Below are positions 1-64,000 of a DNA stretch of 64,000 nt, one piece after another. The stretch's first letter is position 1. Each line of letters opens with the position of its first letter. Made by a program: the position numbers. The DNA comes from Deinococcota bacterium (GTDB lineage Bacteria; Deinococcota; Deinococci; Deinococcales; Thermaceae), in NCBI GenBank assembly GCA_041695225.1, contig JBGFRI010000003.1:64001-128000 (forward strand), in the 5' to 3' direction.

Positions 1-3000
1 GCGGATGATCTGGTCACCAGATTCCTGCATCAAAGATCCGATACCCACCAGCATTTTCCCCACACACATGGGCATATACCAAGAAACTGCTTGTGCTTGT
101 CTTCGCTACCGCATGATAGACTATTTCATGATAGGAGGAGATGATAATGAAAATAGTCTATGGCGACCGCGGCCCCGAGATCTGGTCCCGGGGCAGCCTG
201 GTGGGGTACCACTACGAACGGGGTCCTCAGGTACCGCTAGAAATAAGCGGTGGGAACCTCGAGACCATTAAGCAAGTAGCTCTTGAGCTACACAAGCAGC
301 CTGCACACCGGCTTATGGCCCATCAGCTATACTTCTGGCTCATGGGCGCGAAACTCCCTGAGGGATATAAACCTTTAGGGGATGCTCTGGGAGTTGCCGA
401 TGGTCAGTTGTATTTCTTAGGGGCTCTAGCCAGCCGCCAGGCCATCCGAGAGAACTGGGCTCTGGCCTTGAAAAACTTCCCAATGGACTGGTGGCCAGCA
501 TTGCGGCTGTGGCTGCTCTTCCCCTGGAGAGGGCTTGATCAGAGGGTTGTAGATGGCCTGCCAGGCGGGGTTCTCTGTAATGAGCGTCTCCTCCTCTCAC
601 AGGATGGCACCCTTCTTTACGAGGAAGGAGACCTCGATCCCTACTCGGACCTTCTGGAGTGGTTGGAGGGCCAGCCCCTTGAGGCCGCCCTTGAGCTGAA
701 TATACCGGCAGTAGCTGGATGGAAAGTCAATCCAGAGGCGCCACCTATCGCTGGCGTACTGGCACACTGGTACAGGGATGGAAAACCCTGGTTGCTGGGA
801 TCGGCCTTCAATAAGGTCTGGCTCCTGGGGCCCAGAGTAACAGTCTGCCTGAAGCCATCCGCCAAAAAGGTGCTTCGGGAAGCACTCGAGGCCGATCATC
901 TATCACCAGATGACCCCACCTGTGTCTTCTGGGCGCAAGCCACTACCGGAAAAGGTCTTGCCGTAAAGCCAGGTCATGCAAACCTTGTCAGGCGCCTGGA
1001 TTCTTTCCAGTTGTTTTCTGGCAAGAAAACTCGCTGGGTTACGTTGAACAATCAGGCCTACGAAACGTCAGTACCCTTCACCAGGGCCCTGGAGGAGGGA
1101 TGGCTAAATCCCGGTGAGATGTCTACCTGGTTGCTTCGTGAGGGTGGGCAAAAGGCTCTTGAACACTCACACAAGCACCCAATGGAGTACGTTGGCCAGC
1201 TGCAAGGGAACAACGTATACCTGGGCAAAGCGTTCGACCGATGGGAGCTGAGAACTAGTAGCCATCGTATTGGCATCTACTCTTCTCGGCAAGATGCCCA
1301 TACTGCGGTAGTCCGGAACGGCCTGGCCAGCCTGTGGGCCATGGAGCGCTTGGTGGCGCTCTAAGTAGCTACATCAGCTATGCGGTGCCATACCCAAAGG
1401 TATGGCGCCGCTCTGCTTAATCACAAAAAAGAGACCCCAAAAGGTCTCTTTTTGCTCCTGCTGCGCCTACGGCAAAGTCGCCCAGAGAGGCCTCATCTCC
1501 CTCGAGCCGGAGTAAGAGGGCTCAAGGGTATGCCCCTCCAGCGAGGCCTCCCCTTTGTGCAGGACAACTGTAATCAGGGCCTCCTGGGCCTCGATTCCGC
1601 TCAGCCTGTCCAGTAGCTCCTGTAAGGGAAGGTCTTCCAGGTCGGCGAAGTCACCGAGCCCCTCAATCTCTGCAGCGCTGTAGACCGACGCCTCAATCTT
1701 CCGAGGCGACTTTAGAATCACCTCGAGGCCCTGGCCCTGCTCCTCCAGAACCTGGGCGGCTCTTTTTAGAAGCGCCAGCTCCTGCTGGACAGCTCCCCAG
1801 CTAGTCTCGTCCAGGGCCACTACAATTTGCCCGGACATTTGTTCGTCTGCCGTAAACCCGTATCCATGAATGAACATGCTCACCTCCGATAGGGGTCTCC
1901 TATCGGCATATATTATACATCTGGCTTCCTGGTATGATCCGTTCTTTCTTACACCCAAACCCTAACCATGGGTGTAAGACGCTGCCATCTCCCACTCTGA
2001 TATATAATGCTCCCCGATAGGAGGAGTAATGGAAAACAAACTCAGTTTCAAGCAGTTCATAGAGCGATTCGGCACCGAGCTGGTAGCCCAGGCCGAGGCC
2101 GCCCTCCCACCCATAGTCACCCAGCCCCTGTATCGGAAGTCTGGGCGCACTCCCAAGGGCCAGCAGGCCCTGGCTTCTGCCGGGTTGCTCCAGCGGCTTC
2201 AACAGGGCCAGGCCATCACCTATCTCCCTGCCGAGATGTCTACGGGTAAAAGCAAAATTGCCCTGGACGCAGTGCTGGCCTACCAGCCCCAAGGGCGCAC
2301 CCTGGTTCTCTGCCCACCCCACCTCGTAGAGAAGTGGAAAAGGGAGGCCGAACTCGAGGGTGCCAGGGGAATAATTCTCAACTCCCCTGCTGACGTGAGG
2401 GCCCTGGCCTCAATGGATGGCCCGTTGGTGGCCGTCCTCTCGCGGGAGAAGGCCAAGCTCGGCTCTGGGTGGAAGCCCGCCGTAACCTGGCGGCGAGGGC
2501 TCCCCACCTGCCCCGACTGCTCCCGGCTGGTTATCGACAAGGACAGGCTGCCCCTAACCCAGTCCGCACTTGAGCGAAAACGCCACTTCTGCAAGTGCGG
2601 CTCTGCCCTCTGGCAGCAGGTAGGCTCAGCCCGGGTTCCCCTGGCCGATTACCTGAAGCGCATCATCCCCAGGGGTTTCTTCAAGACTATGATCCTTGAC
2701 GAGGCCCACGAGTACAAAGCAGGGGACAGCGCTCAGGGTATCGTAGCAGGCAGCCTGGGCTTCTGGGTCGGCCAGGTGCTGGCCCTCACCGGAACCCTGT
2801 TTGGCGGCTACGCCAGCAACCTGTTCCACCTGTTATGGCGGTACATGCCCGAGTTCCGGGCGAAGTACCGCCATAACGAGGCCGCTCGCTTCGTGGCCGA
2901 GTATGGCCTGCTCGAGCGGGTCACCCGCGAGGCAGACTACCGGGATGGCCGGGTCAGCCGGCGCAAGGAGCGTAGCAGCCATACCAGGGAGCGGCCGGGG

Positions 3001-63000: not shown

Positions 63001-64000
63001 AACCTCCGGGTGGAGGATGTATCCCTCGACGGCCAGGCTCCCCAGGCATACATCTCCAAGGCCAAGAAAGACTCGGTGCGCTACGTGCCTATCCTGACCG
63101 GCCTGGCCCAGGAGTTGCGGATGCACCTCGGAGGAAGGACCCGGGGCTACCTCTTTGAGAGCAACCGGCATAACCGCTACTCCCAGCGGGCTATCCAGAA
63201 GCTGATCCACCAGGCCGCACTGGCAGCAGGCATTAACAAAAGAGTCTACCCCCACCTGCTGCGCCACTCCATCGCCCAGATTCTGTTAGACCGGGGGATG
63301 CCGCAGGAGCAGTTGCAGAAATTCCTGGGCCACCTCAATCCCAAGACCACCCAGATCTACGCCGAAAGCTCTCTTGTCCAGGTGGCGGAGAGTTACTCGA
63401 GGGCGCTGGGGCGGAATGGTTGATCCAACTAACGAGAAGGAGACCGCAATGAAAACCTGCTACTGCCATACCTGCAAGCGCCATTTTCACTACCTGGGCA
63501 TTAATCGCCACAGAGCGATGCACCGGGATCGCCGGGAGTTATGTACAATCACCTACACAACCGGCAACACACTCACGTTCGACTGGCGGCCTGAAAGGCC
63601 CGGCCAGGCCGGTGCTTCTGCTAAAACCGTATCTCGCTGAGCCGCCGAAAGGCCGGGGTGTTTTGCAGTGTCTGATTCCGTTGAATCAGATCCCAGGCGG
63701 TGCTGCCCGCCGAGGTACGCACTCTGGGGTCGGCCCCCAGCTCCAGCAGTGTCACGGGAATGGCCGAAGTAGTGCTTTTGGCTGCCGCATAGTGCAGGGG
63801 GGTCATTCCTCGCTGATTCCGCGCATTTATCTCGGCCCCCCGCCGAACCAGAGCCTCAATGATGGCGGGGGTAGCGCTTAAGCCCGCAGCAAAATGAAGG
63901 GGTGTCGAACCCACTGGAGTCCGTGCATTCACCTGAGCACCCAGCCGAACCAGGGCCTCGATAATTGCTGGGTTGGTACTGATGGCCGCAGCAAAGTGCA

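Follow-up and report, generated by a model that had tools for sequence, protein, structure and literature searches.

What reads the nine bases GATAGGAGG that stand a few nucleotides before the start codon of gene after gene on a plasmid of Thermaceae? The tag was analysed on contig C8, in particular in the window, by which we mean the whole stretch of 64,000 nucleotides under study. C8, a member of the Thermaceae plasmid family pMESIL02, is conjugative and carries the following genes of plasmid maintenance and transfer; no relaxase family was recognised on it.

Window 24193–25966: ParA/ParB, partition genes
Window 26767–28209: Rep3, replication initiator
Window 58743–60992: T4CP, coupling protein
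C8 131903–134509: TraG/VirB4-like ATPase

Results

A recount gave 29 copies of GATAGGAGG on C8 and 9 on the other 49 contigs (2.68 Mb), corresponding to 0.193 and 0.0034 copies per kb. The 57-fold enrichment of the survey's finding was thus obtained again. The window holds 14 copies, compared to 0.59 expected and a maximum of 2 in 100 dinucleotide shuffles. Exactly 7 nt upstream of 12 of these 14 copies lies TATANT (0.00 expected), and the two remaining copies have TAGACT (site 130) and TATGCT (site 45772) in this place. Over all 29 sites on C8 the −10 logo T28 A28 T27 A24 n T28 at −13 to −8 could be reproduced. The survey had placed 28 sites 7 nt after TATAnT; this number holds for the looser pattern TANNNT-N7-GATAGGAGG (28 on C8) but not for the exact string TATANT-N7-GATAGGAGG, which occurs 23 times. 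The pattern TANNNT-N7-GATAGGAG has 32 matches in the genome, every one on C8. As reported before, 28 of the 29 copies shortly precede a start codon (27 ATG, 1 GTG), which follows 2–8 nt past the motif. These leaders, 17 on the plus and 11 on the minus strand, are spread across C8 from 32 to 143 kb. Outside C8 two of the nine copies precede a start codon, namely at C12 124569 and C22 3196, matching the single tagged genes that the survey gives for the ICE and for C22. The cassettes in the window are listed below in window coordinates; the motif is GATAGGAGG unless another sequence is given.

117–143, plus: cassette 1, TAGACT-N7-GATAGGAGG (130–138)-ATG; gene 141–1364, orphan paralogue family, 407 aa
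2003–2031, plus: cassette 2, TATAAT-N7-GATAGGAGG (2016–2024)-ATG; gene 2029–4014, SNF2-type helicase (Helicase_C; ResIII below cut-off)
4083–4115, plus: cassette 3, motif 4096–4104; gene 4113–5048, DUF6094 methyltransferase
9478–9507, minus: cassette 4, motif 9486–9494; gene 8716–9480, orphan family, 254 aa
15155–15186, plus: cassette 5, motif 15168–15176; gene 15184–15606, 140 aa; the G005:C8 orthologue likewise has a cassette
22760–22790, plus: cassette 6, motif 22773–22781; gene 22788–24020, orphan family, 410 aa
34727–34757, minus: cassette 7, motif 34736–34744; gene 33428–34729, orphan family, 433 aa; divergent to cassette 8
34999–35028, plus: cassette 8, motif 35012–35020; gene 35026–36414, 462 aa, without family match
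36611–36640, plus: cassette 9, motif 36624–36632; gene 36638–37792, orphan family, 384 aa
42098–42126, minus: cassette 10, motif 42105–42113; gene 40865–42100, orphan family, 411 aa; divergent to cassette 11
42235–42264, plus: cassette 11, motif 42248–42256; gene 42262–43443, orphan family, 393 aa
45754–45785, minus: cassette 12, TATGCT-N7-motif 45764–45772; gene 45172–45756, Cas_VVA1548 (Csx16-like), 194 aa
47462–47490, plus: cassette 13, motif 47475–47483; gene 47488–48744, orphan family, 418 aa
48850–48878, plus: cassette 14, motif 48863–48871; gene 48876–49400, 174 aa; the G001:C3 orthologue likewise has a cassette
1875–1917, minus: variant cassette, TATAAT-N7-GATAGGAGA (1896–1904), separate GGAGG, ATG 18 nt past the tag; gene 1467–1877, 136 aa
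28483–28519, plus: variant cassette, TATACC-N7-GATAGGAGA (28496–28504), ATG 12 nt past the tag; gene 28517–30541, SLH-domain protein
50858–50879, plus: variant cassette, TATATC-N7-GATAGGAGT (50871–50879), followed only by a 26-codon ORF

The last of these variants points antisense into the 3' end of a Type ISP restriction gene (50910–55718, minus). Annotated functions among the tagged genes of C8 comprise ssb, ArdC-like, UvrD, DnaN, the DUF6094 methyltransferase, the SNF2-type helicase, the Cas_VVA1548/Csx16-like protein and a dNMP phosphatase, and they fit the content of establishment and anti-defence genes that the survey had assigned to the set.

The signal is sharp, with 28 exact cassettes on C8 against 7 one-mismatch variants that have TANNN[T/C] at N7; elsewhere in the genome 2 unrelated variants of this kind occur. 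Five of the seven read GATAGGAGA, one GATAGGAGT and one TATAGGAGG, and six differ at the last base only. In the variant at 1896–1904 the distance of 7 nt from −10 box to tag is kept, but the start codon has a second GGAGG of its own, and the tag is thereby uncoupled from the ribosome site. TGn directly precedes the −10 box in 11 of 28 cassettes, compared to 8% of 2128 control TANNNT sites; most cassettes lack it. For the −35 hexamer TTGACA at 16–19 bp the best match averaged 2.57 of 6 positions in the cassettes and 2.53 in the 2128 control sites. No column conservation was seen between −60 and −20 across the C8 sites, and nothing is kept upstream of the −10 box.

Among 68 genomes of the family, the 22-mer TATANT-N7-GATAGGAGG was found in four (23 copies in G000, 11 in G001, 6 in G005 and 5 in G006), and at phylum level in 5 of 364, the fifth genome having a single copy. 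Judged by these genomes, the cassette is restricted to one plasmid family. On related plasmids of two other Thermaceae genera it precedes orthologues of 37–67% protein identity, including UvrD, DUF2201, SSB, MoxR, DnaN and others. The orthologous cassettes compared sit on plasmids of 60%, 67% and 69% G+C. In 17 orthologous pairs the upstream region is 26.8% and the spacer 26.9% identical, as in random sequence, whereas the −10 box reaches 83% and the 9-mer 100%. This pattern supports the view that the cassette is a selected, plasmid-specific promoter-plus-leader unit that marks one gene set. The survey's proposal of such a signature is partly supported by the several copies in each of the four family genomes and by their retention before orthologues.

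The 29th copy of the tag on C8 (C8 37307–37315, minus strand) has neither a −10 box nor a gene. It is complementary to a predicted gene for a small RNA of about 90 nt, which is conserved:

C8 37232–37355, plus: small-RNA gene, single copy, 26.6 kb before window position 1, adjoining the uvrD cassette

The sole non-cassette copies of the 9-mer on C8, on G001:C3 and in the first 120 kb of G005:C8 all fall into this one conserved element. All four genomes with the cassette pattern carry the small RNA (E about 1e-21); in record NC_014214.1 it lies in an unannotated gap. A fifth element, the metagenome contig L057, was retrieved via the RNA pattern and contains the small RNA together with eight copies of the 9-mer in 12 kb, seven of them being leaders.

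In 7 of 7 homologues a −35/extended −10 promoter, TTGACN-N14-16-TGNTANNNT, stands at a fixed distance; the spacers have diverged. The 5' helix of six pairs is 100% paired, five of the six with changes on both sides. Its covariation score of 0.41 compares to 0.18 after shuffling (0 of 500 reach 0.41) and to at most 0.15 with the partners slid, the seven homologues representing only about four independent lineages. The second hairpin has a GAAA loop in five of seven homologues, and a GC-rich, terminator-like 3' hairpin occurs in all seven. Behind it, G005, G006 and G016 have a clear U-rich tail and C8 a partial one; in G001, L057 and G018 this tail is weak. With a simple consensus scan, no promoter and no terminator were called at the locus. 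The folding energy is equal on both strands, and the basal G-U pairs of the 5' hairpin speak slightly for the opposite strand. Rfam gave no match at gathering score in L002, L038 and L044, and no Rfam family, C4 and FinP included, matched the small-RNA locus at E up to 1.

Within the small RNA, ACCUCCUAUC is invariant in 7 of 7 homologues although the helices differ. Its predicted unpaired probability is 0.66–0.99, compared to 0.29–0.36 elsewhere in the RNA, and it exactly complements 28 leaders on C8, 14 on G001:C3 and 11 on G005:C8. This exact complement makes the conserved small RNA the best candidate for a reader of the GATA part and suggests that the tag is an address at the RNA level, beyond a promoter and ribosome-binding part.

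The small RNA and a gene for a 135-aa protein form a conserved divergent pair in five elements. The structural model of this protein is confident (pLDDT 80) and has no known fold; several conserved proteins annotated without function, this one included, adjoin the small RNA. Good homologues of the RNA were also found in G018 and G016, which belong to the window's own genus (E 5.6e-10 and 2e-5, respectively); they share its promoter type and ACCUCCUAUC and have a terminator-like hairpin. G018 has zero cassettes and G016 one variant, its sole nearby tag lying on a neighbouring gene remnant; the small RNA can therefore exist without the regulon.

For the duplex of tag and small RNA, energies of −17.1 kcal/mol at 37 °C and −9.7 kcal/mol at 65 °C were computed, compared to −12.3 and −6.0 kcal/mol for the tag with the 16S tail. 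A generic AGGAGG leader gave −10.5 kcal/mol with the small RNA and −10.3 kcal/mol with 16S at 37 °C. A pairing of 9–10 bp is short for 55–65 °C. In 18 of 28 C8 leaders GGAGG is followed by A, which does not pair with the A of the RNA. At the other flank, UAUC of the RNA is followed on its 3' side by A in C8, G005 and G006 and by G in the other two, G001 and L057; leader position −1 is mostly T in the former group and mostly C in the latter. C occurs there in 17 of 59 and 13 of 18 leaders, respectively (Fisher p = 0.002), a weak covariation, as the elements are kin and not independent. It concerns a flanking base, which is inside the mRNA only if the transcript starts at −1 and not at G. Since the tag never varies, tag and RNA show no true compensatory change. 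A search of the genome, complete to 92%, found neither Hfq nor ProQ/FinO (PF04352).

Discussion

We consider it about evenly balanced whether the tag is the docking site of a plasmid antisense small RNA that masks the ribosome site of about 30 mRNAs. If so, one small RNA would probably control the whole tagged gene set together. About 30 plasmid genes are each preceded by one and the same compact cassette of a sigma-A type −10 box, the 9-mer at 7 nt and a start codon. From the −10 spacing we infer an mRNA start at the G of the tag or 1 nt before it, and the transcript would then open with GAUAGGAGG, being 5' end and strong Shine-Dalgarno at once. The GAUA part, above all the U that mismatches the rRNA, would be kept because the small RNA docks there. 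This RNA of about 90 nt would be transcribed from its canonical −35/extended −10 promoter beside the uvrD cassette, and its predicted fold exposes (A)CCUCCUAUC as the only single-stranded stretch, between two 5' hairpins and the terminator-like hairpin. Its pairing with the tag over 9–10 bp should beat the pairing of tag and rRNA and cover both the ribosome site and the 5' end of the mRNA, so that the whole set would be damped together, while host mRNAs with GGAGG alone would pair with the RNA no better than with the ribosome. The likely use would be a burst of establishment and anti-defence proteins on entering a naive cell, which the accumulating RNA would then shut off. Against this reading speak the shortness of the pairing, the invariance of the tag, the RNA homologues in G016 and G018 with hardly any cassettes, the failure to find Hfq or ProQ/FinO in the genome at 92% completeness, and the need for a single RNA to titrate about 30 mRNAs.

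It is possible, though in our view doubtful, that the cassette is instead a self-sufficient expression part, made of a −10-only promoter, a favoured start region and an extended Shine-Dalgarno for high temperature. Nothing would then read the tag in trans, and the RNA would be unrelated or control only its neighbours, i.e. the divergent 135-aa gene, or uvrD by read-through. In line with this, GAUAGGAGG pairs at 8 of 9 positions with CCUCCUUUC of the host 16S 3' end (GGATCACCTCCTTTCT), at the start-codon distance usual for a Shine-Dalgarno, and both the RNA without a regulon in G016 and G018 and the conserved divergent pair in five elements speak for it. However, the perfect rRNA complement GAAAGGAGG occurs only 5 times on C8 against 29 for the GATA form, and the rRNA-mismatching T does not vary across the more than 60 leaders from five elements. 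The rarity of GAAAGGAGG and the variant at 1896–1904, with its tag apart from the Shine-Dalgarno, speak against a mere extended Shine-Dalgarno. Variants hold the tag at the 5' position yet use a separate ribosome site, and near-variants are almost absent, which is unusual in a ribosome site. Were the cassette an expression part alone, it would also be a coincidence that an exact and invariant complement of 10 nt lies in the unpaired stretch of a covarying RNA on each of these plasmids.

A plasmid DNA-binding protein that reads GATAGGAG on double-stranded DNA at +1 to +9, either as a start-site repressor, like those of the global repressor networks on broad-host-range plasmids, or as an activator replacing the −35 box, is unlikely to account for the tag; the copy in the RNA gene would be a further operator. 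Such a protein would agree with the fixed distance to the −10 box, kept even where the motif is not the ribosome site, and promoters without a −35 box, only 11 of 28 with TGn, may need help. Conserved proteins of unassigned function beside the RNA, the 135-aa protein among them, could provide it. The site, however, is asymmetric, only 9 bp long and has hardly any degenerate variants, in which it differs from typical operators. No regulator was recognised in all elements, the HTH and CRP-like genes of C8 not being common to all three plasmids, and an operator leaves unexplained why the copy in the RNA gene falls exactly into the unpaired linker of a covarying structure.

Recent copying of one good promoter-leader by recombination or gene duplication, with the tag unselected, is a very improbable origin of the sites. 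Of the 28 genes 8 are paralogues, two with identical leader and identical first codons, but the tag is kept before diverged orthologues while spacer and upstream sequence are randomised, which removes this caveat of the survey. The protein identities speak against recent transfer from plasmid to plasmid.

Several known systems resemble the proposed docking of a small RNA in part. KorA/KorB of IncP and the R388 network are global repressor regulons with palindromic protein operators. They share with C8 one short repeated signal before many plasmid operons; the signal described here is asymmetric, sits where the transcript is predicted to begin, and is matched by a complementary RNA. Sigma-70 promoters of the extended −10 (TGn) type that lack a −35 box are described for middle and late genes of Thermus phages. 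The −10-only design is similar, TGn being enriched in the cassettes but absent from most of them; the invariant 9-mer at the predicted start site does not belong to this promoter class. FinP, an antisense RNA on the traJ leader of F-like plasmids, has one target, is encoded opposite to it and depends on FinO. Similar to FinP, the small RNA is predicted to be a stem-loop plasmid antisense RNA that would keep a plasmid function repressed by covering a leader's ribosome site. In contrast, its gene (C8 37.3 kb) lies at a separate place on the plasmid, its seed of 9–10 nt is common to many of them, and no ProQ/FinO domain was found.

The c4 RNA controls the single operon icd-ant and is processed from that operon's own transcript, whereas here a single RNA would target about 30 distinct mRNAs via a shared 5' tag. 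In PMC8201110, which cites Citron and Schuster 1990, c4 is described as an antisense RNA of phages P1 and P7 (immI operon) that acts in trans on the ribosome-binding region; a small antisense RNA of a mobile element with such trans action, leaving genes silent once established, is what we predict here. Leading regions of plasmids carry anti-defence and establishment genes with single-strand (Frpo-type) promoters (PMC11541004, PMC13478746). Common to both are the idea of fast and efficient expression after entry and genes of the same kinds (ssb, ArdC-like, orphan methyltransferase, helicases). The Frpo-type promoters are hairpins in the transferred single strand with co-oriented genes. Here the upstream sequence shows neither conservation nor a shared hairpin, though no hairpin search was made at the individual sites, and the cassettes lie on both strands.

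Conclusion

The motif and the promoters of these plasmids were not described in the full text of the literature searched. Should the pairing prove real, this would to our knowledge be the first plasmid-wide regulon in which a shared mRNA 5' tag defines the members and a single antisense RNA controls them. Direct testing is possible because the carriers are cultured type strains (NC_014214.1, NZ_KE387028.1). A more far-reaching idea, which we regard as speculative and rather unlikely, is a private addressing system in which one RNA gates at least 30 establishment and anti-defence mRNAs and the solitary copies in G016 and G018 are 'immunity' genes that silence incoming plasmids of the family. 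In these plasmid-free relatives the solitary RNA would act from the chromosome or from a competing element. If the docking of the small RNA on the tag is true, thermophile engineering would gain a promoter-plus-RBS part of 35 bp together with an RNA that switches it off. It would further give a sequence rule for spotting candidate establishment and anti-defence genes, mostly orphans, on Thermaceae plasmids, and would explain how such a plasmid combines strong expression at entry with a low later cost.

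Results and Discussion

The enrichment of the 9-mer tag GATAGGAGG described in the survey was borne out, with 29 copies on the plasmid contig C8 compared to 9 on the other 49 contigs (2.68 Mb). The window holds 14 copies where shuffles predict 0.59, and an exact TATANT is located 7 nt upstream of 12 of these (0.00 expected). Over the 29 sites on C8 the reported −10 logo was reproduced (T28 A28 T27 A24 n T28 at −13 to −8), to which a pyrimidine at −1 in 28/29 sites and a partial TGn can be added. A start codon follows 2–8 nt downstream at 28 of the 29 sites. The claim of a −10 box at 28 sites holds for the form TANNNT and needs a small correction for exact TATANT, which is found at 23 only. 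One-mismatch variants of the tag with a −10-like hexamer (TANNN[T/C]) at N7 occur seven times, the last base alone being altered in six. In several of them the tag still lies exactly 7 nt after the −10 box with the start codon 12–20 nt further downstream, and at window 1896–1904 this codon is served by a second GGAGG separate from the tag. Since the spacing is kept in variants with a distant start codon, the conserved unit is '−10 box, 7 nt, GATAGGAG', corresponding to the predicted 5′ end of the transcript.

The cassette promoters have no −35 box: best matches to the 6-mer TTGACA upstream of the C8 cassettes average 2.57/6, in comparison to 2.53 at 2128 control TANNNT sites. TGn precedes the box in 11/28 cassettes versus 8% of the control sites. 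Following the usual spacing rules, the mRNA would be expected to start at the G of the tag or at the preceding base, as the −10 box ends 8 nt before this G and a pyrimidine stands at −1. A CRP-like gene adjoining the module on C8 was rejected as a regulator, with no conserved site at −35 to −50 and the gene not common to the other plasmids.

The full 22-mer is present in four of 68 genomes of the family (23 copies in G000, the genome of C8, 11 in G001, all on its plasmid contig C3, 6 in G005 and 5 in G006). The other 25 genomes in the genus of the window lack it, as do the 32 genomes of g5, another Thermaceae genus. At phylum level 5/364 genomes contain it, the fifth having just one copy; a control with the pattern reversed matched once. 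The other plasmids, with 67% and 69% G+C compared to 60% for C8, keep the arrangement TATAnT-N7-GATAGGAGG-N3-8-start. At orthologues of 37–67% protein identity the cassette is retained, namely for UvrD, a DUF2201 VWA/metallopeptidase and a 142-aa protein (each in three elements) and for SSB, MoxR, the DnaN pair and others. In 17 pairs of orthologous cassettes, identity amounts to 26.8% (132/493) upstream and 26.9% (32/119) in the N7 spacer, in contrast to 83% (85/102) in the −10 box and 100% in the 9-mer. Saturated neutral positions around a frozen motif point to purifying selection and not to recent spread. The alternative raised in the survey, copies of one promoter distributed by recombination, is contradicted by flanks randomised next to an unchanged 9-mer. 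The cassette is genuine; it is confined to a single plasmid family and is under selection. As a sequence fact, the 'regulon signature' of the survey is supported; its physiological part is a proposal.

C8 is a conjugative plasmid of 150,324 bp. Its gene content includes:

C8, plasmid functions: Rep3 initiator, ParA/ParB, coupling protein, VirB4/TraG-type ATPase, type IV pilus-like cluster
C8 59657–63666 and 1989–2729 (outside the window): type I-E Cascade genes, with Cas6e-like, Cse1, Cse2, Cas7, Cas5 and a second Cse2-like gene

A restriction enzyme of Type ISP is encoded as well; cas3, cas1 and cas2 were not seen in the Pfam tables of the plasmid. About 85 of 170 C8 ORFs (heuristic gene calls) form a backbone common to G001:C3 (124,421 bp) and/or G005:C8 (155,960 bp) at 26–86% protein identity. 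In PLSDB, plasmid pMESIL02 of Allomeiothermus silvanus DSM 9946 (NC_014214.1) matches the uvrD region in the same arrangement. Unexpected cargo in the window consists of a DdrB-like single-strand annealing protein (19625–20020), a thymidylate kinase (9788–10441) and a formyltransferase fused to an enoyl-CoA hydratase-like domain (6138–7868). Two ankyrin-repeat proteins are encoded (window 61657–62514 and C8 127621–128340), and one is also found on pOCEPR01, a Thermaceae conjugative plasmid with similar cargo.

For the orphan family, eight paralogues among the cassette genes, Pfam and PHROGs gave no match and the ESM Atlas no usable one. Two members (window 36638–37792 and 42262–43443) match exactly in the leader and over the first ~66 codons, yet are only 43% identical overall, which suggests recent gene conversion or recombination at their 5′ ends. 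At C8 50604–50643, outside the window, two diverging cassettes with tags 14 nt apart have a single palindromic −10 region (AGTATACT) in common, which would allow polymerase loading in only one direction at a time. Further back-to-back pairs are located at window 34736/35012 and 42105/42248. The variant cassette GATAGGAGT (window 50858–50879) has no real ORF downstream and reads antisense into the Type ISP restriction-modification gene (50910–55718) at its 3′ end. Given this orientation, it may direct antisense RNA at the restriction enzyme that the plasmid itself encodes.

The 29th 9-mer site lies outside the window, at C8 37315 on the minus strand, with neither a −10 box nor a gene. Its counterparts at G001:C3 29185 and G005:C8 77398 lie inside a conserved block of hairpins which, on the opposite strand, has the predicted anatomy of a small-RNA gene:

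Promoter: −35 box TTGAC(A/T/G), spacer of 17–18 bp differing among the elements, TGn and TAnnnT
After the promoter, in order: ~7 nt, hairpin with the loop GGAGGU, hairpin with a GAAA tetraloop, (A)CCUCCUAUC, GC-rich hairpin with a variably U-rich tail
C8, plus strand: −35 box from 37232, predicted start ~37268, anti-leader (the stretch complementary to the tag) 37307–37315, end ~37355
C8 36769–37176, minus strand (outside the window): neighbouring gene for a 135–140-aa protein, with counterparts at L038:9339–9755 and L044:16730–17152, loci holding relatives of the region

With an RNA pattern built from this block, genome, metagenome and viral contigs were scanned. Four loci were obtained in genome contigs, two of them real and both from Calidithermus (C. 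chliarophilus DSM 9957, L053; C. roseus NBRC 110900, L050). Among four loci in metagenome contigs one is real (L057, 13.8 kb), with 8 copies of the 9-mer in 12.35 kb, 7 of which are leaders. The remaining two and three loci, respectively, were dismissed as chance matches, and viral contigs gave 0 matches. All sequences keep the first helix paired, and 5/6 of its pairs show compensatory changes. The covariation score of the whole structure is 0.41 compared to 0.18 in shuffles (0/500 reach it), and slid partners give at most 0.15. With a covariance model, each of the four genomes carrying cassettes gives one copy of the RNA (E ~1e-21); weaker ones come from G018 (E 5.6e-10) and G016 (E 2e-5), both of the window's genus. 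Two weak matches in genus g5 (E ~5e-3) resemble GC-rich coding sequence and were dropped. The promoter pattern is found in 7/7 homologues, and ACCUCCUAUC is invariant in all seven despite differing helix sequences. The anti-leader is the least paired part of the RNA (unpaired probability 0.66–0.99 compared to 0.29–0.36 elsewhere, at 37 and 60 °C). A scan for consensus promoters and terminators at the gene gave none of either. Folding energy is equal on both strands and does not discriminate between them; the basal G-U pairs of one hairpin speak slightly for the opposite strand.

Solitary homologues (G018:C29:12284–12377 and G016:C6:490–564) have an intact promoter, seed and terminator hairpin. 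G018 contains zero cassettes; in G016 a single variant tag precedes what is left of the 135-aa neighbour gene, a short decayed remnant. These RNAs may be relics, may have another role or may act against incoming plasmids. The neighbour gene is always divergent from the RNA gene (five elements, 54–59% identity to the C8 copy). Its protein matched nothing in Pfam at E up to 1 or in PHROGs, and its AlphaFold model, although confident (pLDDT 80), gave no known fold (Foldseek against PDB, best E 0.08; VIA-align wide, best Z 3.7). Owing to these empty searches, a role as RNA chaperone is neither supported nor contradicted.

The tag could be regarded as an extended ribosome site. With the host 16S rRNA 3′ end, GGATCACCTCCTTTCT, the sequence GAUAGGAGG pairs at 8/9 bases, leaving a U-U mismatch at T. 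The perfect complement GAAAGGAGG occurs in only 5 copies on C8 compared to 29 of the GATA form, so that ribosome binding alone is insufficient as an explanation. The anti-leader, in comparison, is the exact complement of the tag. For the tag leader, predicted duplex energies are −17.1 kcal/mol with the RNA and −12.3 with the 16S tail at 37 °C; at 65 °C they are −9.7 and −6.0, respectively. A generic AGGAGG leader gives equal values (−10.5 and −10.3). The GAUA extension, especially the U that mismatches the rRNA, is thus predicted to favour the RNA over the ribosome on tagged mRNAs only.

The base after GGAGG is mostly U in the leaders of G001, G005, G006 and L057 and would pair with the A that precedes CCUCC; in 18/28 leaders of C8 an A stands there, and only 9 bp would form. 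In C8, G005 and G006 the RNA base after UAUC is A and leader −1 mostly T; in G001 and L057 the RNA base is G and leader −1 mostly C (C at −1 in 17/59 vs 13/18 leaders, Fisher p = 0.002, the elements being kin). This is a weak indication of flanking-base covariation, and the base would be part of the mRNA only with a start at −1. As the tag is invariant, true compensatory changes linking it to the RNA do not occur. No relative was found in which tag and RNA both differ in a matching way; the 50 of 135 kb of pOCEPR01 that were examined contain neither the tag nor the RNA, and no other tag is enriched there.

FinP, acting with FinO, is an antisense RNA of a mobile element that covers a ribosome site. 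FinP and c4 have a single target each and belong to differing families. Rfam gave no match at gathering score in three 20-kb loci and none with E ≤ 1 at the RNA locus, and the genome (92% complete) yielded no Hfq and no ProQ/FinO; the anti-leader RNA is accordingly not a member of the c4 or FinP families. In NC_014214.1 the predicted RNA, of about 90 nt, runs from position 29234 to 29143 within an unannotated 236-bp gap, and this putative antisense RNA is previously uncatalogued. Mobile-element antisense RNAs directed at a ribosome site, such as c4 of P1/P7 (PMC8201110), are the nearest described devices. The cassette gene set resembles leading-region anti-defence islands (PMC11541004; PMC13478746). 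The cassette promoters, however, do not appear to be single-strand hairpins, and cassette genes face both directions. Full-text matches to the motif, among those listed, resemble primers or unrelated sequence, and the combination with 'thermus' gave an unrelated match only. Literature on Meiothermus plasmid promoters, anti-SD plasmid small RNAs, pMESIL plasmids and Thermus start sites or small RNAs held nothing on the system, and no paper was found on the motif or on the regulation of these plasmids.

Conclusion

The best explanation of these data is a −10-only promoter producing mRNAs whose 5′ tag would serve as ribosome site and, at the same time, as target of a conserved antisense RNA; judged from sequence, we give the full mechanism an about even chance of being correct. 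The anti-leader RNA would, by covering their 5′ end and ribosome site, damp all tagged mRNAs collectively. For the plasmid, the outcome would be a burst of expression on entering a naive cell and a low cost later.
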